Shown in pieces: positions 10,578-24,616 of a stretch of DNA of 24,675 bases. The notes beneath the pieces are model-generated. The model saw only the letters and a list, made by a program, of their open reading frames with translations. It was not told where the DNA came from and searched no databases. The stretch is from Candidatus Bathyarchaeota archaeon (lineage in GTDB: Archaea > Thermoproteota > Bathyarchaeia > Bathyarchaeales > Bathycorpusculaceae). Positions within the stretch are counted from its first letter, which is position 1. The number at the start of each line of letters is the position of its first letter. The DNA lies in contig CAVTZU010000012.1 in NCBI GenBank assembly GCA_963739305.1, forward strand, positions 1 to 24,675, written 5' to 3'. Made by a program: the position numbers and the translations under genes.

Positions 10578-11537
10578 ATGAATTACCGAAATCTCGGCAA
10601 ATCTGGCCTTAAAGTATCACAGATCTGTCTGGGAACCAATAATTTCGGTGGACAGATCAATGAAGAAGCTTCCATAAAGATAGTTAACAAGGCTATCGAC
10701 TGCGGGATAAACGTCATAGACACAGCAAACATATACACGGGAGGCAAGTCTGAAGAAATAATTGGAAACGCCGTGAAGAGCCGCAGGGACGAAGTCGTCC
10801 TAGCAACAAAAGTGGGATTCGGCGCCAGTGAAGGACCAAACCGGACCGGGCTCTCGCGCAAACGTATTCTTTCTCAGGTTGAGCACAGTTTGAGAAGCTT
10901 ACAGACAGACTTCATCGACATCTATTATCTGCATCGCTTCGACCCTGAAACGCCTCTTGAGGAGACGCTTCGAACGTTCGACTCCCTCGTACGCAACGGA
11001 AAGGTGAGGTATATAGCGTGCTCCAATTTTTCGGCTTGGCAGATAGCCAAAGCCCACGAGATCTGCGAGGCGCATGATTTGGAGAAGTTCATCGCGGTTC
11101 AACCACCCTACAATCTTCTACAAAGAGACATTGAGAAAGACATTATCCCCTATTGCCAGCAAGAAGGATTAGGGATTCTAACATACACGCCGCTGATGGG
11201 AGGTTTTCTAACCGGAAAATATTCGAAAGGTGCGCATCCGCCAACAGGCAGCAGGTTCGAGTACAATCCGAGACTCTGGGAACGCGCGAACAAAGAATCG
11301 AATTTTGCAGTTCTAGAGCAGATTGAAAGTGTGGCTAACGAAGTCGGCATATCCGTTTCAAAATTAGCCATTTCGTGGATACTGAAAAACCCGGCGATAA
11401 CAGCGCCCATCGTGGGGGCTTCAAGCGCAGAACAAGTCGAGGAAAACTGTAAAATAGCCGAAATTAACCTCAAAGACGAAACCTATCAGAGACTAAACGA
11501 GTTGACAAAGGGCCTAAGCTTTGCACTGTACTCCTGA
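10578..11537 (+). CDS. Aldo/keto reductase
   Basis: LGKSGLKVSQICLGT, IDTANIY, LATK, SLRSLQTDFIDIYYLH, GKVRYIACSN, QPPYNLL, PIVGAS. Confidence 0.95.
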   Translation: MNYRNLGKSGLKVSQICLGTNNFGGQINEEASIKIVNKAIDCGINVIDTANIYTGGKSEEIIGNAVKSRRDEVVLATKVGFGASEGPNRTGLSRKRILSQVEHSLRSLQTDFIDIYYLHRFDPETPLEETLRTFDSLVRNGKVRYIACSNFSAWQIAKAHEICEAHDLEKFIAVQPPYNLLQRDIEKDIIPYCQQEGLGILTYTPLMGGFLTGKYSKGAHPPTGSRFEYNPRLWERANKESNFAVLEQIESVANEVGISVSKLAISWILKNPAITAPIVGASSAEQVEENCKIAEINLKDETYQRLNELTKGLSFALYS

Positions 11538-11820
11538 ATGATTAACACTAGGAGACCGATCAAAGAAAACTGAACCTGCCGAGTCGGAACATGAGATAGC
11601 GCGCGCTAGTTCGACGATCTCATAAGAACGCTTTGTCGAATTCATCACTGGGACAATGTGCTATAAGACACACGCTCACTCATGTCAAGTGCTTTGAGTG
11701 GTTTGGGTTGGCTGCGGCTGTGAGCGCGCGCGCTCGCTTGATTCAGTCTTAATACCAACTTAGTGCGTAACAATAAGGTCAGGTGCCAAGAATGGTTGAC
11801 ATACGGACTGTCTGGCACGC

Positions 11821-12588
11821 GTGATGAAGGGGGCAAGTGGATTGGACCTTAGAGGTAAAACGCTGATTGTAACAGGAGCTTCAAGGGGAATTGGCCGAGC
11901 TTTGGCTTCAGAACTGGCTCAGAATGGTGTCAACCTTGTCTTGAACGCCCGAAGCGGTGCACTCTTGGATGAGGTGGCCACTGCCGCTAGAGGGAAAGGT
12001 GTGTACGCATTGACAGTGGTAGGTGATGCCGCGTTAGCCAGCAACGCCCGGAAAATGGTGGAAGCCGCGATTGGTATTGGCGATTTCGTCGGTTTCATTC
12101 ACAACGCCGGAATCGCTCATCCTGGTCCATTCTTGTATGAACTGGATGAGGCCAAGTTTGAGGATGTTTGGCGATCCAACGTGTTAGCTGGTTACCAGAT
12201 CGCGCGTTTCTCTTATCCAGAACTGCGGCGAAGGAAGAGTGGCTTGGCGGTCTTCTTTGGGTCAGGAGCTGCGGAGATGTACTTAGAAGGCACTGGAGCC
12301 TACTGCCTCTCCAAGGCCGCGGAAGAGCATTTGGCGAAACAACTTGCCGTTGAGGCTCCAGAGATCACTTGCTTCGTGTATCGACCTCTGGCTGTCGACA
12401 CTGAGATGCAGAAGAGTGGCCGTGAAGCAAAGGGCAGCGGGGCCAAGGTGTTGCACCGCGTATTCGGAGACTTGAAGGAGAGAGGGCTCCTAACTCCCGA
12501 AGCGTCCGCGAGAGCGTTAGTGCAGATAATCCAAAATGACCCGCGCAGCTTCCACGGCAAGATAGCTACCTACAAGGACGGTTTATAG
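11821..12588 (+). CDS. Short-chain dehydrogenase/reductase (SDR)
   Basis: IVTGASRGIG Rossmann motif, HNAG, YCLSK (YxxxK), VDTEMQ. Confidence 0.93.
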   Translation: MMKGASGLDLRGKTLIVTGASRGIGRALASELAQNGVNLVLNARSGALLDEVATAARGKGVYALTVVGDAALASNARKMVEAAIGIGDFVGFIHNAGIAHPGPFLYELDEAKFEDVWRSNVLAGYQIARFSYPELRRRKSGLAVFFGSGAAEMYLEGTGAYCLSKAAEEHLAKQLAVEAPEITCFVYRPLAVDTEMQKSGREAKGSGAKVLHRVFGDLKERGLLTPEASARALVQIIQNDPRSFHGKIATYKDGL

Positions 12589-12761: not shown

Positions 12762-12845
12762 TGAATTAGATGCTGTTCCACAAGGGATAAGAACGTATAA
12801 TCTGATAGTGTTCTCTTGACAGGTTGATGAGGAGAGGTCTTCTTG
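12762..12845 (+). promoter_or_regulatory. Promoter/5'UTR of STAND paralog 1 (duplicated at 21281-21364)
   Basis: CAAGGGATAAGAACGTATAATCT (12781-12803) identical in both copies, BRE/TATA-like; GAGGAG Shine-Dalgarno-like sequence before TTG. Confidence 0.75.
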
Positions 12846-15800
12846 GCATCCATTGAACGTGAACGTGTTCCGAGTCCACGTCCTATCGCTGCAAGAGAGA
12901 TACCTCTCATCGACAGAGTCGAAGAAATGAAACTCTTGAAGGAAGCTGTCGACAGGACGATTCAAGGTGAGGGCGGTCTGGTTTTTCTCTATGGAGAGGC
13001 CGGAATCGGTAAGACAAGATTGGCGAGAGAGCTTAGGGCTTATGCACATCTTCGTGGAATGCGTGTTCTTTACGGCAGATGTCCTGCTCTGTTCAGAATG
13101 GATGGAGTTCCTCCTTACATTCTTTGGAAGGAGGTTATCAAAGACTATTTGGAAACGTGTACAATTGAGCAATTGGACAGGGTCATCGGCTTTTATCCTG
13201 CTGAAATTGCCAAACTTGTTCCTGAACTCAATCAAAGACTCAGAACAATCCCTCAGTCCTACCAGATAAGTCCTGAGCAGGAGCAAAACAGATTGTTTGA
13301 AGCAGTTTCACAATTCGTCACCAACATCTCTAGGGAAACTCCTCTACTCATCGTTCTTGACGATTTGCAATGGACTGATCCGTCTTCGCTCTTGTTACTA
13401 CATTATCTGGCTCGCGGCGTTCAGAAAACACCTCTACTTCTTCTGGGAGCTTATCGCAGCACAGACATCGATGCAAAGCATCCGTTGTCTCCGGTCTTGA
13501 CGGAGTTGAAGAGAGAGCGGTTGCCGGTTTCCATCTCTTTGAAACGAATGTCTCGAGACGACGTTTCAGAAATGATCAAACAGATACTGGAGCAAGATGA
13601 AGTTCCACCAGAATTCTGCAGTCTGGTCTACGAGAAGACGAGAGGCAACCCGTTCTTCGCCGAGGAGGTCATAGAATCTCTGAAAGAAGAAGAGGTCATC
13701 CACAGGGAGGGAAACAAGTGGAAGTTCAAAGAAACTTCCAAGATCGAGTTTCCAGAAAGCGTTAGAAATGTCGTTAAGACAAGGCTTAATCGTTTGGATA
13801 GTGAATGTCAGAACGTCTTGACCCTGGCTTCCTTTGTTGGAAACGATTTCACGTTGGAAGCAATGTGTGCACTCACTGGAATCGAAGAGAACAAGCTTCT
13901 TGAATTGATGGACAAGATGCTCGAGACAGGACTGGTCAAAGAGAGGGAGATCCGTGGAGAAGGCATCTGCTCTTTTGCCGACATATTGGTTAGGGATGTC
14001 GTGTATGAAGACGTTAGTCTTCTGAAGAGGAAGAGTCTTCACCGGGTTGTCGGGAACGCCCTCGAAAAAGTCTACGCTAAGAAGATTGACGAGCATTTTG
14101 GAGAACTGGCGTCCCATTTTCTCGAAGGTGGAGAGAAGAACAAAGCGCTTGAATATTTCTTCAAAGCCGGAGAAAAAGCCGCAAAGATTTATGCCAATGC
14201 AGAGGCGGCCTCGTACTTCCAGTCCGCACTTAAACTACTGGAGGACGAGAGAAATGAGATTCGAAAAAGAGGAGATGTTCTTGAAAGGCTTGGTGACATC
14301 AAGAATCTCGTAGGCGAATATGATTCTTGCATTAGATATTGGACTGAAGCGCTAGAGCTTTGGGAACAAATCGGTGAGAAAGAAAAGGCTTCAAGGTTGC
14401 ACCGCAAGACAGCCAACGTTCTTTGGATGGTAATTGGCGACACGGAGAAGGCCGCAGAACATCACGAGATGGCTTTGAGAGTTTTGGAGAAGGAACCTGA
14501 AAGTGCCGAATTAGCGAGTCTCTTTGAAGACATGGCCCGCTTCTATTCTCGCACCCAGGATGAAACTAAAGCTCTTTCTTGGGCTGAGAAAGCAATTGAG
14601 CTGGCCAAAAAACTCAACGATCATGAAGTCATTGCACGTTCTTACGGCACTCTGGGAGTGATCTTCGCTGAAACTGGGAAAGCAAAAAAGGCAATTGAAT
14701 GCCATGAAAGATCCTTGAGGATAGCGCTTGATAACGGTTACATGGACATCGCATTGCGTGCCTACAACAACGTTTCAGCAGAGCTAGATACTGAAGGAGA
14801 AAAAGAGAAAGCATTGGAGTTTGCCGTAAAAGGATTCGAACTGGCAAAGAAAATTGGAGCTATAAGATGGATATCTTGGATAGGCACAGGCCTTTCATCG
14901 ACATACTTTGAAATGGGAGATGCGGCAAAGGGACTTCCTTTGGCTGAAGACTCGGTTTCACTGGATAGGAAGGCGGGTGACCTTACTAATCTTTCCAATT
15001 CCCTGAACAACCTCGGATACATTCACCTCATATTGGGCGAACTGGATAGGAGCGAGCTATACTTCAAGGAAGCTCTAGTCCTTGCGCAAAAAGCGAAAAA
15101 TAACCAGCAAACTGGCTACAGTCATGCACTCATTGGATGGCTCTATTCCTACAAAAGCGAATACATCAAGGCAGAAGAGCAATTTAGGAAGGCATTTGAC
15201 GTATTTGAAAAGGCCGGAATGAAATACTACCAAGCATATACCTCTTTCAGGCTTACCTGGGTGAACACAGAGCTAGGAGAAATTGACAAAGCCCAAAACT
15301 TCCTTGCAAAAACAGTCGAATATGCTGTCGAAGCAGGAGACAAATTGCTCATTGCTTTTGCGGACGCTGGCAAAGGAATGCTGTTTCGAACCCAGAAAAG
15401 GTGGAAAGAATCTATAGAGTTTTTCGAAAAGAGTCTTCAAGAACTCGACACTCTCAATTCAAGGCGATGGAGTATCTACTGGCCCGCTAAACTGAGCTTT
15501 GAAAACGCCCGGGTTTACCTGGAAAGAGACCAAAAAGGCGATAAAGAGAAAGCCCGCGATCTCCTCAACCAAGCACTTGAAATGTTTCAGAAATTGAACG
15601 CCAAAATAGAGGTTGAGAAAACTACGAGATTGCTTGAGACTTTGCACCCGCTTCAGGCACAAACGCTTGAAGGGGGGATCATCACAGCGAATCTTGAACA
15701 TGGCGATGTTCAAATCAACATCACGGCTGCGCCCAGAGAACTAAAGATCGGTGAGAGTCTAGAACTGGAAATAGAAGTTACAAATACTGGCAAAGTTGGA

Positions 15801-16097
15801 ACCATTCAGCTTACGAAGATCACAGAAGCCATCCCTGAAGGTTTCGCTGTAATCAAGAAGCCTGAATTGTACCGCGTAGAAGGCAATGATCTCAACTTGA
15901 AAGAGAAACTGCTTGAACCTCTCAAAAGAGAGGAAATCAAGTTTGTTCTGACACCGAAGACTCAAGGCACGTTCAACATCAAACCAAGAATAGTGTATCT
16001 TGACGAAAATCGCAAAGAGAAAACCTGTGAGCCTAAGCCACTAAGCATAACGGTCAAGGAACTCGGCATCAAGGGCTGGCTTAAAGGAGAAAGATAA
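12843..16097 (+). CDS. STAND-class (AAA_16/MalT-like) NTPase with TPR array and C-terminal Ig-like beta-sandwich, paralog 1
   Basis: LIDR pre-Walker motif, GEAGIGKT Walker A, LIVLDDLQW Walker B, TRGNPFF GxP motif, ~40-aa helical repeats, beta-rich C-terminus (ELEIEVTNTG...IPEGF...GTFNIKP). Confidence 0.9.
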   Translation: MASIERERVPSPRPIAAREIPLIDRVEEMKLLKEAVDRTIQGEGGLVFLYGEAGIGKTRLARELRAYAHLRGMRVLYGRCPALFRMDGVPPYILWKEVIKDYLETCTIEQLDRVIGFYPAEIAKLVPELNQRLRTIPQSYQISPEQEQNRLFEAVSQFVTNISRETPLLIVLDDLQWTDPSSLLLLHYLARGVQKTPLLLLGAYRSTDIDAKHPLSPVLTELKRERLPVSISLKRMSRDDVSEMIKQILEQDEVPPEFCSLVYEKTRGNPFFAEEVIESLKEEEVIHREGNKWKFKETSKIEFPESVRNVVKTRLNRLDSECQNVLTLASFVGNDFTLEAMCALTGIEENKLLELMDKMLETGLVKEREIRGEGICSFADILVRDVVYEDVSLLKRKSLHRVVGNALEKVYAKKIDEHFGELASHFLEGGEKNKALEYFFKAGEKAAKIYANAEAASYFQSALKLLEDERNEIRKRGDVLERLGDIKNLVGEYDSCIRYWTEALELWEQIGEKEKASRLHRKTANVLWMVIGDTEKAAEHHEMALRVLEKEPESAELASLFEDMARFYSRTQDETKALSWAEKAIELAKKLNDHEVIARSYGTLGVIFAETGKAKKAIECHERSLRIALDNGYMDIALRAYNNVSAELDTEGEKEKALEFAVKGFELAKKIGAIRWISWIGTGLSSTYFEMGDAAKGLPLAEDSVSLDRKAGDLTNLSNSLNNLGYIHLILGELDRSELYFKEALVLAQKAKNNQQTGYSHALIGWLYSYKSEYIKAEEQFRKAFDVFEKAGMKYYQAYTSFRLTWVNTELGEIDKAQNFLAKTVEYAVEAGDKLLIAFADAGKGMLFRTQKRWKESIEFFEKSLQELDTLNSRRWSIYWPAKLSFENARVYLERDQKGDKEKARDLLNQALEMFQKLNAKIEVEKTTRLLETLHPLQAQTLEGGIITANLEHGDVQINITAAPRELKIGESLELEIEVTNTGKVGTIQLTKITEAIPEGFAVIKKPELYRVEGNDLNLKEKLLEPLKREEIKFVLTPKTQGTFNIKPRIVYLDENRKEKTCEPKPLSITVKELGIKGWLKGER

Positions 16098-20318: not shown

Positions 20319-20771
20319 GTGATTGATTTGGAGCCTGGAGAAGTCAAGACTACTGTACATAATATGCTTGAAGCGTTCAACAAGAGGGACTTGAAAAGTA
20401 TGCTTTCTTTCTTTACAGATGATGCGACATATGTACGACCTGAAGGAATTTTCAAGGGAAAAGAAGAAATAGGGCGGTATTACGCCTGGACCTTTTCTAA
20501 CTTCTCAGAGCTGACAATTACAGAGAAAGGGATCATTGTCGAAGGAGATAAGGCTGTCCTCGAGTTTGTTATGAAAGGAATTTCTCCAAGGGGTGGCGGC
20601 AGAAATCTACGGCTCGCAGGACTGGACCTATTTGAGTTCAAAAACGAAAAGGTTCAGCAACTTCATATCTATCAAGATAGGCTTTCAACGGCCAAACAGT
20701 TAGCAAATGGGTGGTTTGAGAACATGATAATAAACGGTGTCGTTAATCGGATGGAGAAAGGTCTGCGTTAG
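20319..20771 (+). CDS. SnoaL-like / NTF2-family protein
   Basis: MLEAFNKRDL..MLSFFTDDA, FKGKEEI, IVEGDKAVLEF, LFEFKNEKV...YQD. Confidence 0.85.
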   Translation: MIDLEPGEVKTTVHNMLEAFNKRDLKSMLSFFTDDATYVRPEGIFKGKEEIGRYYAWTFSNFSELTITEKGIIVEGDKAVLEFVMKGISPRGGGRNLRLAGLDLFEFKNEKVQQLHIYQDRLSTAKQLANGWFENMIINGVVNRMEKGLR

Positions 20772-20813
20772 CACGCGCGCGAGGTATCGATCGATCTAGG
20801 AGGTGAGAGCTGG

Positions 20814-21134
20814 ATGGTGGTGAAGATAATGATGAAAGTGTATGCGAAGGAGGGCATGAGCAAAGACGAGTTCGTCAACCATTGGCTGACCAAGCATGCT
20901 CCATTAGCGAAAAAGAAATTCGGTGACAAACTCAAGAAGTACGTGATCAACATCGTTATGTCAGCCGATGGCGAAGAGCCTGGGTACCAGGGCACAGCGG
21001 AGCTCTGGTTCGAAAACATGAAGACGCTTCAGAAAATTATGGCCTCTCCAGCATTTGAGAAAGTCATGGCAGCCGCCGAGAACTTTGCGAGAAAAGGTAC
21101 GATGGTGATCCTCGAGGAACACACAATTATATGA
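20814..21134 (+). CDS. EthD-family dimeric alpha/beta-barrel protein
   Basis: KEGMSKDEFVNHWLTKHAPL, KYVIN, YQGTAELWFE; GGAGGTGA SD. Confidence 0.85.
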   Translation: MVVKIMMKVYAKEGMSKDEFVNHWLTKHAPLAKKKFGDKLKKYVINIVMSADGEEPGYQGTAELWFENMKTLQKIMASPAFEKVMAAAENFARKGTMVILEEHTII

Positions 21135-21280: not shown

Positions 21281-21364
21281 TGAATTAGATGTTGTTCCGC
21301 AAGGGATAAGAACGTATAATCTAATAACATTCTATTGACGATTTGATGAGGAGGCGTCTTCTTG
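21281..21364 (+). promoter_or_regulatory. Promoter/5'UTR of STAND paralog 2
   Basis: Colinear 84-nt homolog of 12762-12845, with 23 identical nt around TATAAT. Confidence 0.75.
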
Positions 21365-24300
21365 GGATCCATTGAACGCGAGCGTGTTCCCACTCAACGT
21401 CCCATCCCTGCAAGAGAGATCCCGCTCATCGACAGAGTCGAAGAAATGAAACTTCTGAAAGAGGCCGCCGACAGGACGATTCAAGGCGAGGGCGGCCTCG
21501 TGTTTCTTTATGGAGAGGCGGGAATCGGAAAGACAAGGCTTGCCAGAGAACTTGCCACATATGCGCACTTGCGTGGGATGCAGGTTCTCTATGGCAGGTG
21601 TCCTGCACTGTTCAGGATGGATGGAGTTCCACCCTACGTAATCTGGAAGGAAATCATCAAAGAGTATCTGGAAATAAGCACTCCTGAGCAATTGTACAGG
21701 GTGATAGGCTACTATCCGGCTGAAGTGGCAAAACTGGTTCCAGAGCTCAGCCAGAAGCTAAGATCGATTCCTCAGTCTTTTCCCATAGGTCCTGAGCAGG
21801 AGCAAAACAGGCTTTTTGAAGCTGTCTCGCAGTTTGTCACGAACATTTCCAGAGAGGCTCCTTTGCTTGTGGTTCTTGACGATTTACAGTGGACCGATGC
21901 ATCCTCACTTCTACTATTTCACTATCTGGCTCGTGGCGTGCAGAAAACGCCATTACTTCTTTTGGGAGCCTACCGTAGCACTGACATCGACGCTGAACAT
22001 CCGCTGTCGCCAGTCTTAACGGAATTGAACAGGGAACGCCTGGCGCGCCCTGTCTCTCTAAAACGAATGTCTCTTGAGGATATTTCGGAGATGATTAAGC
22101 AGATATTAGAGCAGGACGATGTTCTAACCGAATTCTGCAAGTTAGTCTATGAGAAGACAAGGGGCAACCCCTTTTTCGCCGAGGAAGTGATAAAATCCCT
22201 GAAAGAAGAGGAAGCGATTTATCGAGAGGCGAACAAGTGGAAAATCAAAGAAGTCACGAAGATCGAGTTTCCTGAGACCGTAAAGAGCGTCATAAAGACA
22301 AGAACAGGTCGACTAGATGATGAACAGCGAAATGTTTTGACGATGGCTTCTCTTGTTGGAAATGACTTTACGTTTGAGGCTTTGCAAGGAGTCACTGGTT
22401 CAAACGAAGATGAACTGCGCAAGATAGTAGATGGGCTGCTCAAAACAGGATTGCTCAAGCACAGAGATGTGCGAGGAGAAGACGTGTGTTCTTTTGCTGA
22501 TGTAATTGTGAGGGACGTGGTGAGTGAGGAGGTTGGAACCTATGAACGCAAGAAACTCCACGAAGTAGTCGGAACGGCTCTGGAGAAGGTTTATGCTGCA
22601 AAGATTGATGAACACCTAGGCGAATTGGCCTTACACTTTCTTGAAGCAGGAGACAAAGACAAGGCGCTTGGCTATTTTTTGAAAGCAGGAGACAAGGCGA
22701 CCGATGTTTATGCAAACAACGAAGCTGTTTCCTACTTCCAGTCTGCTCTCAAACTTCTTGAAAGCAAAGAAGGCGAAACTCGGGAAAGAGCACGCGTTCT
22801 TGAGAGACTTGGAGAAATCAAAATGCTTATTGGAGAAAATGACCTTGGCGTGAAATACTTGAATGAAGCTTTGCTACTGTGGAAGCAACTTGATGAGAAA
22901 GAAAAAGTTGCAAGACTACACCGCAAGATGGCATTTATTCTTTGGACCGAGATTGGCGATACGGAGCAGGCTCAGGAGAATTTAGAAAAGGCTTTAAGGA
23001 TCTTGGAAGCCGGACCTGAAAACGTAGAATTGGCAGCACTCTATGAAGCTTGGGCTTTCTTTTCAGTATTTCACCCCGGAGATATAACGAAAGCTCGCTC
23101 ATGGGCTGAGAAAGCCCTCGAACTTGCAAAGAAACTGAATGCTTCTGAAGTTGCTGGAAGCGCATACCATGACTTGGGAATCGTGTTCGGCGCCACGGGA
23201 GAGCAAAAGCAAGCCGTTGAATGCATGGAAAAAGCCTTGAAAATAGCGCTCGACAACAGTTACGTTAGAAATGCTGTACTTGCCTATAACAACCTTGCCG
23301 CTGAACTCCCAGCAGAGGAAAATGAAAGAAGATTAGATTGTCATGAAAAAGCATTGGAGCTGTCAAAAAAAGCAGGGATGATTACGGGCATATCCTGGGG
23401 TCAATACGCTATGGCTACAGAGTATTTCCGCATGGGTGACATTGAAAAGGCACTTACCTTGGCGGAGGAATCAGACACGTTGAGTAGGAAGATAGGTAAT
23501 TTGTTTAATATGTGCTGCTCCACATCTTTTCTTGGACTTCTATATCATGTTAAGGGAGAATGGAACAAAGGCGAGCAGTGCCTAAAAGAATCGTTAAGCA
23601 TATCCCAAAAAATAAAGAATCCTCAAGAAATCGCGGCTAGTTACTGGGGGCTTGGCTGGTCCTACTATGACATGGGCCAATATTCTAAGGCCAAAGAATT
23701 CTTTGACGCGCTGGCTGAAGTCAATGAGAAAAGAGGAAAAGCCCTCCAAGTATATGGTTATAGATGGCTTGCTATGAACGACATAGAGCTTGGCGATATT
23801 GACAAAGCAAAAGCCCTATTGGACGACATTCACAAGTTTGCCCACGAAATACAAGACAAACAACTCATCGCCGATGAAGACACAAGGAGAGCTATGCTGC
23901 TGCGTGGAGAGAAAAGATGGGACGAATCCATCGAACTCTTCAAAAGAAGCCTTCAAGAAAACGAGGCTTTGGGTGCAAGACGTTGGAACGCGTATTGGTT
24001 CGCCAAACTTGTTCTCTATGAATATAGCCGTGTGTATTTGGAGAGAAACCAACCGGGCGACAAAGAAAAAGCCCGCGACCTGCTCAACCAAGCTTTGCAG
24101 ATTTTCCAGAAAATGGAAGCCAAGAAAGACATCGAAAAAACAATGACGTTGCTCGAGGCCTTGAATCCTCCTTCAACCCAAACCCTTGAAACAAAAGTCA
24201 GTCCAAAAGCTCATGAGGTCATTGACCTCCAGTGCAACATGATAGCTACTCCGAAAGAGCTGAAAATCGGTGAGAGCCTCGAGTTGGAAATAGAACTCTC

Positions 24301-24616
24301 AAACACGCGCAAGGAAGGGTCCATGTTGCTAACCAAGATAGCAGAGGTTGTTCCAGAAGGTTTCGCGGTAGCAAAGAGACCTGAATCCTACCGCGTCGAA
24401 GGCAATTGCCTCAACATGAAAGAAAAGCAGCTTGATCCCATGAAAAAAGAGGAAGTGAAGCTTGTTCTAATACCAAAGATCCAGGGCACGTTTCACATCA
24501 AACCAAAAATAACATATCTTGATGAGAATGGCAAGGAGAAAACCTGCGAGCCCAAACCTGTAAGCATAACGGTTAAGGAGCTTGGAATCAAAGGTTGGCT
24601 CAAAGGAGAAAGATAA
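21362..24616 (+). CDS. STAND-class NTPase with TPR array and C-terminal Ig-like domain, paralog 2
   Basis: Same motifs (GEAGIGKT, LVVLDDLQW, TRGNPFF), same length (1084 aa) and same last 17 residues as paralog 1. Confidence 0.9.
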   Translation: MGSIERERVPTQRPIPAREIPLIDRVEEMKLLKEAADRTIQGEGGLVFLYGEAGIGKTRLARELATYAHLRGMQVLYGRCPALFRMDGVPPYVIWKEIIKEYLEISTPEQLYRVIGYYPAEVAKLVPELSQKLRSIPQSFPIGPEQEQNRLFEAVSQFVTNISREAPLLVVLDDLQWTDASSLLLFHYLARGVQKTPLLLLGAYRSTDIDAEHPLSPVLTELNRERLARPVSLKRMSLEDISEMIKQILEQDDVLTEFCKLVYEKTRGNPFFAEEVIKSLKEEEAIYREANKWKIKEVTKIEFPETVKSVIKTRTGRLDDEQRNVLTMASLVGNDFTFEALQGVTGSNEDELRKIVDGLLKTGLLKHRDVRGEDVCSFADVIVRDVVSEEVGTYERKKLHEVVGTALEKVYAAKIDEHLGELALHFLEAGDKDKALGYFLKAGDKATDVYANNEAVSYFQSALKLLESKEGETRERARVLERLGEIKMLIGENDLGVKYLNEALLLWKQLDEKEKVARLHRKMAFILWTEIGDTEQAQENLEKALRILEAGPENVELAALYEAWAFFSVFHPGDITKARSWAEKALELAKKLNASEVAGSAYHDLGIVFGATGEQKQAVECMEKALKIALDNSYVRNAVLAYNNLAAELPAEENERRLDCHEKALELSKKAGMITGISWGQYAMATEYFRMGDIEKALTLAEESDTLSRKIGNLFNMCCSTSFLGLLYHVKGEWNKGEQCLKESLSISQKIKNPQEIAASYWGLGWSYYDMGQYSKAKEFFDALAEVNEKRGKALQVYGYRWLAMNDIELGDIDKAKALLDDIHKFAHEIQDKQLIADEDTRRAMLLRGEKRWDESIELFKRSLQENEALGARRWNAYWFAKLVLYEYSRVYLERNQPGDKEKARDLLNQALQIFQKMEAKKDIEKTMTLLEALNPPSTQTLETKVSPKAHEVIDLQCNMIATPKELKIGESLELEIELSNTRKEGSMLLTKIAEVVPEGFAVAKRPESYRVEGNCLNMKEKQLDPMKKEEVKLVLIPKIQGTFHIKPKITYLDENGKEKTCEPKPVSITVKELGIKGWLKGER

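Follow-up and report, generated by a model that had tools for sequence, protein, structure and literature searches.

Do two related receptor genes residing in one archaeal genome recognize different ligands, and by which route would such a difference have arisen? This question is raised by the window analyzed here, which is the entire 24,675-bp contig C12 (CAVTZU010000012.1) of a 2.3-Mb Candidatus Bathyarchaeota genome bin rated 7.8% contaminated. The window carries two genes, referred to as paralogs A and B, each encoding a STAND ATPase with an array of tetratricopeptide repeats (TPR). A preliminary description of this DNA had proposed that the two TPR arrays differ in ligand specificity. The main new result of the present analysis is that the NTPase, the TPR cassette (approximately codons 450-900) and the C-terminal module have uncoupled histories. 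Taken as a whole, the data incline us towards a MalT-clade STAND receptor family in which the variation is borne by the TPR groove, the sensors are swapped as cassettes and the specificities of A and B differ.

Architecture of the gene pair and mosaic history of its modules

The genes and modules on which the analysis relies are the following, the basis of each assignment being given in parentheses.

12843..16097, + strand: paralog A, STAND ATPase gene, 1084 aa (open reading frame (ORF) translation, Pfam, start region kept in 83 homologues)
12843..14072, + strand: A residues 1-410, nucleotide-binding oligomerization module (NOD) with AAA_16 P-loop, helical arm and winged helix (motifs, AlphaFold2 secondary structure, Foldseek)
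14073..15644, + strand: A residues 411-934, TPR array of helix pairs, from helix 412-429 to helix 921-934 (AlphaFold2 model, Pfam TPR families, LGN/Pins matches)
14190..15542, + strand: A residues 450-900 approximately, exchangeable sensor cassette (breakpoints in relatives)
14634..15473, + strand: A residues 598-877, seven 40-residue repeats, the most divergent stretch, spanning the region singled out in the preliminary description (register and entropy table)
15708..16094, + strand: A residues 956-1084, C-terminal beta-sandwich with conserved tail ELGIKGWLKGER (Pfam, model, Foldseek)
21362..24616, + strand: paralog B, same architecture as A, 1084 aa (ORF translation, Pfam, alignment to A)
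23156..23989, + strand: seven repeats of B aligned to A 598-877 (pairwise alignment; coordinates derived from the alignment gaps)
24227..24613, + strand: C-terminal beta-sandwich of B with tail ELGIKGWLKGER as in A (sequence, Pfam)

Paralogs A and B are MalT-clade STAND ATPases composed of an AAA_16 domain, a winged helix, TPRs and a beta-sandwich. Paralog A starts at a TTG codon preceded by the Shine-Dalgarno-like motif GGAGAGG and matches the Pfam families AAA_16 (1.6e-29), TPR_12 (4.3e-43), TPR_MalT (1.5e-14) and BatD (2.8e-5). The AAA_16 scores of A and B reach 104 and 100.6 bits for a cut-off of 32.6, TPR_12 reaches 145.8 bits for a cut-off of 30.1, and TPR_1, TPR_2 and TPR_8 likewise exceed their cut-offs. 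The Walker A motif GEAGIGKT (51-58) is present in both proteins, as is Walker B (168-174), which reads LLIVLDD in A and LLVVLDD in B. Residues G51, G54, G56, K57, T58 and D173 are invariant in an alignment of 83 full-length homologues, across which the number of TPR repeats is constant and indels are few. The AlphaFold2 model of A built on these homologues has a mean predicted local distance difference test score (pLDDT) of 80.9, mostly above 90 in the TPR part and only 55-80 in the NOD. In this model, the NOD and winged helix display helices together with beta-hairpins at 286-295 and 365-378; about 12 helix pairs follow, and the C-terminus is all-beta. The model's top Foldseek match is 6mfv_A, an archaeal STAND protein with a TPR sensor (E=2e-13; 16% identity), followed by the TPR domains of LGN and Pins. 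The STAND order of a helical arm and a winged helix after the NTPase, then a repeat sensor, is read from this fold match and from a model whose NOD pLDDT is 55-80. The TPR nature of the sensor is apparent from its tandem helix A/B pairs and from low entropy at repeat positions 7, 8, 15, 19 and 20. Residues 1-23 of A (12843-12911), the same in B, are predicted to be disordered (pLDDT below 50), yet are near-invariant in the 83 homologues, particularly at S3, E5, R6, P10, R13, P14, E19, P21 and L22. Their mean proportion of synonymous differences (pS) is low as well, 0.43 versus 0.62-0.73 elsewhere.

The history of the modules was followed in a DNA set of 80 unique sequences, obtained from 103 ORFs matching A in the fetched loci by exclusion of those not spanning residues 20-900, below 50% identity, containing N or duplicated. 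NTPase and TPR distances are nearly uncorrelated in this set (Spearman 0.16-0.21, 3160 pairs). Ten of the 18 pairs with a TPR pS below 0.2 have an NTPase pS above 0.45 and, conversely, 8 of the 17 pairs with an NTPase pS below 0.3 have a TPR pS above 0.55. The search for recombination breakpoints called for in the preliminary description proved productive, as the sliding nucleotide identity of discordant pairs switches sharply around codon 300 and around codons 420-450, often with a recovery at about codon 900. The identity of L054 and L053 rises from 70-89% to 91-100% at codon 300 (synonymous distance 0.54 versus 0.01) and that of L068 and L084 drops from 92-99% to 39-59% past codon 420-450; similar switches occur in L027/L028, L056/L061, L055/L057 and L098/L109. 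The flanking DNA behaves in the same manner. L068 and L084 match at 86.6% over 3 kb of upstream flank and on into the gene for 1.4 kb, beyond which no blastn homology is found, and L098 and L109 share their downstream flank at 90% but not TPR codons 674-905 approximately. L027 and L028, two copies located on one complete 2.17-Mb chromosome, have an NTPase pS of 0.36 versus a TPR pS of 0.81. Approximately unbiased (AU) tests on the TPR DNA rejected three of three tested NOD-sister pairs as TPR sisters (p=1e-46, 2e-73 and 3e-4).

Gene A of the window takes part in this pattern. The closest TPR relative of A, P0003, is 94% identical to it in TPR residues 598-877, 85% in the NTPase and 82% in the C-terminal domain, and P0004 is 100% identical through the TPRs and 73-83% over the last 60 residues. 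The nearest TPR relatives of A and B in the DNA set (L054 and L078) bear KaiC-like ends. Within the tree set, 15 sequences end in a beta-sandwich and 55 have the KaiC length. On the TPR tree, this C-terminal type switches 11 times, compared with 13.8 on average after shuffling, and 7 of 200 shuffles gave a count as low; on the NTPase tree it switches 8 times, and none of 200 shuffles was as low. NOD, TPR cassette and C-terminal module are re-assorted by homologous recombination, the cassette being flanked on both sides by conserved sequence.

The 3' end of the gene behaves as a separate mosaic unit in one further pair, L080/L086, identical through codon 955 with a pS of 0.17 in the C-terminal domain. 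The family-wide pS of this domain is 0.54, below the 0.70-0.73 of the TPRs.

The scaffold was described at the outset as constant. The NOD is indeed strongly conserved, but it is not the slow part of a single lineage, as recombination has given the NTPase and the TPRs different histories. The 84% identity of the A and B NTPases corresponds to a family-wide plateau (median 0.81 to all members) and thus gives no sign of a recently shared scaffold, and the two genes are not mutual nearest relatives on FastTree trees. Between A and B, synonymous change has reached saturation, with a pS of 0.74 over the whole gene and nearly all 60-codon windows saturated; the first 60 codons, at 0.45, are the exception. 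The duplication must therefore be old, and ratios of nonsynonymous to synonymous rates (dN/dS) cannot be obtained from this pair by itself. Gene conversion between A and B was considered as a cause of the NTPase likeness and rejected for the core, where pS is 0.74; an unusual likeness is confined to the leader and the 60 codons that open the gene (pS 0.45).

Variation and selection along the TPR repeats

A and B share 701 of 1087 aligned positions (64%). Identity amounts to 84% in residues 1-300, 60% in 301-410, 63% in 411-597, 44% in 598-877, 68% in 878-930 and 74% in 955-1084, which bears out the initial observation that the NTPases are alike and the central TPRs far less so. That observation had been illustrated with four peptide pairs, which are located at A residues 597-608, 675-688, 715-728 and 755-768 (nt 14631-15146) and display 4/12, 4/14, 4/14 and 5/14 identities. 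Each of them sits in a helix A of the model (594-611, 674-690, 714-731 and 754-770). The proposal that the changes cluster in one helix per repeat was nevertheless overstated. When helix A is taken as repeat positions 1-14 and helix B as 17-34 over the seven repeats 598-877, A and B differ at 64 of 98 helix A sites versus 67 of 126 helix B sites (Fisher P=0.076). The contrast resides in the canonical concave positions 2, 5, 6, 9, 12 and 13, where 32 of 42 sites differ, compared with 123 of 236 elsewhere (P=0.004), with a mean BLOSUM62 score of 0.6 versus 2.3 at the other positions. Similarly, the motif KA.SWAEKA.ELAKKLN, cited as a conserved partner helix, is a helix B (574-590) as proposed, belonging to the preceding, less variable repeat; helix B is not kept in the core of 598-877, because over half of its sites differ there.

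The same distribution is observed in the family. Mean column entropy over the 83 proteins is 0.51 bits in the NTPase, 1.06 in residues 411-590, 1.73 in 591-860 and 0.72 in the C-terminal domain. The seven repeats were stacked on the TPR register (L7 and G8 at 604/605, etc.), position 1 corresponding to residues 598, 638, 678, 718, 758, 798 and 838; within one protein, these repeats are 16-17% identical to each other. Entropy peaks at positions 2 (3.03 bits), 5 (2.98), 6 (2.97) and 9 (2.74), followed by 10, 38, 39 and 13, for 0.9-2.0 bits in helix B. The set 2, 5, 6, 9, 12 and 13, chosen a priori since these positions are concave and ligand-contacting in TPRs according to the available portion of Magliery & Regan (PMC1261162), averages 2.64 bits versus 1.55 elsewhere (Mann-Whitney P=1.7e-11) and ranks first among 40 register shifts. 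It accounts for 21 of the 42 most variable sites, 26 of which fall in helix A and 11 in helix B. The variable positions would therefore line the concave face. The groove sites carry 8-18 residue types each, except for two sites with 3 and 4. Tryptophan makes up 8.1% of their residues versus 1.7% overall and 0% in a disordered linker, and charged residues 17% versus 39% in helix B. Such a composition is unlike that of an unconstrained surface and argues against a mere absence of constraint.

Selection was estimated by pooled Nei-Gojobori dN/dS over 24 phylogenetically independent pairs with an overall pS of 0.05-0.55. The ratio is 0.08 in the NTPase, 0.14 in the winged helix, 0.19 in TPR residues 411-597 and 0.32 in 598-877. 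Within the repeats, it reaches 0.52 (0.44-0.60) in the groove set, 0.34 in the rest of helix A and 0.24 in helix B. When pairs were re-chosen by TPR pS (15, 29 and 25 pairs), the groove remained at 0.49-0.55 and helix B at 0.21-0.24. The groove thus evolves at about double the rate of helix B and six times that of the NTPase, and the NOD is held under strong purifying selection in the family. The preliminary description had named an even spread of variable positions over both TPR faces, with no elevated dN/dS, as the pattern that would speak against it; the spread is uneven and the groove ratio is about double that of helix B.

C-terminal module, leader and genomic context

The isolated C-terminal domain of A matches the Pfam families BatD (6.2e-7) and DUF11 (3.5e-4). 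It is modeled as an all-beta sandwich (pLDDT 88) whose best Foldseek match is TRAP-beta (8b6l_F), with a query-normalized TM-score (TMq) of 0.69; given this TRAP-beta-like fold, no enzymatic output is evident. The beta-sandwich and a tail of the form LGI[KR]GWLKG terminate six ORFs of this genome, namely A, B and four solenoid proteins (L130-L133) of 735-1136 aa that match TPR models weakly and lack an NTPase, located as follows.

C9:11358-13562: solenoid ORF
C15:73626-76961: solenoid ORF
C18:132361-135768: solenoid ORF
C20:89100-92408: solenoid ORF

Their C-terminal domains are 42-57% identical to that of A, and the beta-sandwich is possibly an output or adaptor module shared by the six ORFs.

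In this genome, only A and B are close to each other, the next matches being at most 32% identical in the NTPase. Of 8000 candidates scored in the protein database, 1378 have E<=1e-50; some of these, about 1170 aa long, have a KaiC-like C-terminus, and others, about 1370 aa long, begin with a protein kinase. A NOD match at E<=1e-100 is present in 23 of 151 genomes of the same GTDB family, with 1-5 matches each; among the 78 high-quality genomes, 14 have one. The family is thus patchily distributed and present in few copies. Consequently, the parallel drawn at first with the receptor repertoires of NLRs applies in part: the concentration of variation in the groove and the modular re-assortment agree with it, while the repertoire is small, no expansion per genome being found in this genome or in those 151, and no class or site has a dN/dS significantly above 1.

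Two side observations concern the relatives. An in-frame stop, TAG in one and TGA in the other, interrupts same-genus copies (G004:C80:729-3986, L015; G009:C10:105616-108873, L018/L024), which suggests the decay of some copies. The contigs carrying four loci (L035, L040, L044 and L047) belong to a single bin with the title Candidatus Acidoferrum sp., all remaining close matches being titled Bathyarchaeia or Bathyarchaeota, which points to mis-binning or transfer.

A conserved non-coding leader precedes both genes.

12762..12842, + strand: conserved leader/promoter upstream of A, near-identical to the stretch upstream of B
21281..21361, + strand: conserved leader upstream of B, near-identical to that of A

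This leader of about 80 nt is more alike between A and B than their coding DNA. Its 23-nt core recurs without mismatch at both paralogs, where chance would predict 0 occurrences, and at 3 further loci. Across the upstream regions of 78 family genes, most columns of the leader are conserved at 80-99%. A TATA-like GTATAAT lies within it, in addition to the Shine-Dalgarno-like motif ahead of the TTG start. The leader is probably a family-specific promoter or operator and could also serve as a 5' homology arm for exchange. An RNA element was considered and discarded, as no Rfam match was obtained and folding is no better than that of shuffled sequences (z=0.64). A 6-codon upstream ORF was likewise discarded as the reason for the conservation: it is present before A and B, but its start codon is missing in several relatives.

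The neighbors in the window encode housekeeping and small-molecule enzymes, including carbamoyl-phosphate synthase. Enzymes encoded on the same strand precede the paralogs (10578-12588 and 20319-21134), namely an aldo-keto reductase and a short-chain dehydrogenase/reductase before A and SnoaL-like and EthD proteins before B. Synteny with same-genus genomes is limited to the gene itself with about 115 nt on its upstream side and about 35 nt on its downstream side. The best NCBIfam match of the protein is TIGR03903, far below its cut-off, and no helix-turn-helix family, hence no LuxR-type DNA-binding end, was found in the Pfam and NCBIfam scans. At the left end of the window, a tRNA gene lies at 44-117 on the + strand (Rfam RF00005, 60.6 bits).

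Interpretation and comparison with known systems

The proposed mechanism can be summarized as follows. Each protein consists of a P-loop NOD, an arm and winged helix, about 12 TPR pairs and a C-terminal output module, A and B representing two old cassette lineages, anciently separated and now resident in one genome. The groove would form the surface that binds the ligand, probably a peptide or a protein, and that sets specificity; if so, A and B would recognize different ligands. By analogy with PH0952 and MalT, for which the accessible part of PMC6468293 describes a switch between resting and active states, ligand binding may release autoinhibition, permit ADP/ATP exchange and drive oligomerization. 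Oligomerization would in turn cluster the beta-sandwich as the output, its place being taken in relatives by a KaiC-like ATPase or an N-terminal kinase. New specificities would arise mainly from the import of old, divergent cassettes and not from fast point substitution.

A number of results weigh against this interpretation. Diversifying selection, which the site-wise dN/dS suggested in the preliminary description could have detected, did not appear: every class is below 1 and no class or site significantly exceeds it, 15 of 517 sites being above 1 with a best uncorrected P of 0.07 in a per-site test that is based on independent pairs and has less power per site. Mean nonsynonymous difference (pN, 105 pairs) is 0.49 in the groove and 0.43 in the disordered linker, and the substitution rate alone therefore fits near-neutral drift. 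Positions 2, 5, 9, 12 and 13 are also the most variable and least constrained in TPRs in general, as stated in the part of PMC1261162 at hand, and the concave positions were assigned here from the canonical register, not from coordinates. As for the exchange, AU tests on the NTPase DNA rejected none of three TPR-sister pairs as NTPase sisters (p=0.49, 0.74 and 0.11), and exchange in these pairs rests on the jump in synonymous distance and not on topology; the pairs submitted to AU tests were picked after the distances were known. With respect to function, no conserved neighbor or operon partner exists in the 80 loci (the commonest neighbor cluster occurs in 7), PADLOC returned a generic TPR model only, the neighbors give no defense context, and the Pfam and PADLOC scans revealed no nuclease, protease, Sir2 or TIR effector.

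Several of these points would follow from plain relaxed constraint, according to which the helix A face is simply the least constrained by the fold, the ligands of A and B need not differ and the groove is perhaps unspecific. The groove ratio of 0.5, the lack of a significant site, the similar pN of groove and linker, the variability of the same positions in TPRs at large and the 53% of helix B sites that differ between A and B all agree with it. A free surface would not, however, be expected to be about 5-fold enriched in tryptophan and depleted in charge relative to the protein and to the linker, and the presumed outward positions of helix B, guessed from the register, are more constrained (0.19-0.22). 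Entire cassettes are moreover replaced at syntenic loci with the frame still open, and the cassette of A is 94-100% conserved in P0003 and P0004. Relaxed constraint is regarded as a serious but rather unlikely account. Of the 15 sites with the highest ratios, 11 are at positions 2, 5, 6, 9, 12 or 13 and 2 more at 39 or 10.

A second alternative, which we consider very unlikely, holds that the proteins are MalT-like metabolic regulators, each copy sensing a small molecule tied to the adjacent enzymes, so that the groove differences would reflect different metabolites. The TPR_MalT matches, the fold match to a MalT homologue (PMC6468293, in its accessible part) and the small-molecule enzymes directly upstream of both genes are in its favor; it is opposed by the C-terminal beta-sandwich found where a DNA-binding domain was sought in Pfam and NCBIfam, by neighbors that are not conserved over the 80 loci and by a same-genus synteny that ends so close to the gene. 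The mosaic itself could be an artefact of repeat misalignment or of chimeric metagenome assemblies joined across conserved NTPase sequence. Most loci are indeed short-read metagenome contigs, in which chimeric assembly is conceivable, and the family is multi-copy with conserved 5' parts. This explanation is nonetheless extremely improbable: the pattern recurs between the two copies of the complete chromosome and between gene A of the window and P0003, the NTPase nucleotide identity of unrelated members (about 75-85%) is low for k-mer mis-joins, and the repeat region aligns with very few gaps. At the other extreme, the cassette-swapped family could be part of an immune-like recognition system of Bathyarchaeia, an extension that is clearly unlikely at present. 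It would draw on a shared pool of old TPR cassettes recombining through conserved flanks, with the leader and the NOD on one side and the capping repeats and the output module on the other. The beta-sandwich would then act as a homotypic adaptor through which activated sensors recruit the four solenoid proteins devoid of NTPase by like-with-like domain contacts, in the manner of the death-fold or amyloid motifs of eukaryotic and fungal NLR pathways.

Innate receptors of plants, animals, fungi and bacteria are commonly built on STAND ATPases with a repeat sensor. Archaeal examples have barely been characterized, and the Bathyarchaeia are uncultured. To a specialist, the pattern observed here would be unsurprising for a STAND sensor, and the family, with more than 1,300 homologues, offers a clean natural data set on which TPR positions vary and how cassettes move. 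If the groove residues set the specificity, it would also provide natural scaffold-and-groove pairs for the study and engineering of TPR recognition and a route to what abundant sediment archaea sense.

The closest known systems are PH0952 of Pyrococcus horikoshii (PDB 6MFV) and MalT of E. coli, which have in common with A and B a P-loop NOD, an arm with winged helix and a TPR-type sensor. MalT ends in a LuxR-type DNA-binding domain, whereas A and B carry a beta-sandwich and their relatives a KaiC-like or kinase module. The cassette exchange and groove hypervariability observed here are not described for MalT in the available part of PMC6468293. At the level of the repeats, the TPRs of LGN/GPSM2 and Pins are the closest solved sequences (E=2e-13 to 1e-11, residues 683-834), with a repeat of about 40 residues in common. 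These are eukaryotic scaffold proteins without NTPase, and the likeness is confined to the repeats (18-20% identity). The peptide ligands of LGN and Pins occupy a channel lined by the A helices.

The Avs and bacterial NLR-like receptors with TPR sensors, as far as covered by the accessible text of PMC13581612, are alike in layout, with a STAND NTPase and a TPR-like protein-binding sensor. The same text reports that Avs-type sensors are shuffled among NTPase clades, some across many, and a patchy distribution is common to them and to the present family. Unlike Avs, this family has no recognizable effector or defense-island context, and Avs3 comes only 43rd in the fold search (TMq 0.13). The literature search revealed no description of this Bathyarchaeia family, although the supplements of PMC13581612, which lie outside that search, might list it. 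In fungal NLRs with TPR, ANK or WD repeats, the available part of Dyrka et al. 2014 (PMC4986451) reports a combinatorial assortment of effector, NOD and repeat modules and provides a precedent for polymorphism on the concave side of TPRs. The fungal repeats are, from the same source, more than 85% conserved internally, variable in number and endowed with positively selected sites, in contrast to the low mutual identity of the repeats in this family, their fixed number in the 83 proteins and the lack of a site with dN/dS significantly above 1. Sensor-diversifying STAND receptors are thus a known kind of system, and the archaeal family described here is new.

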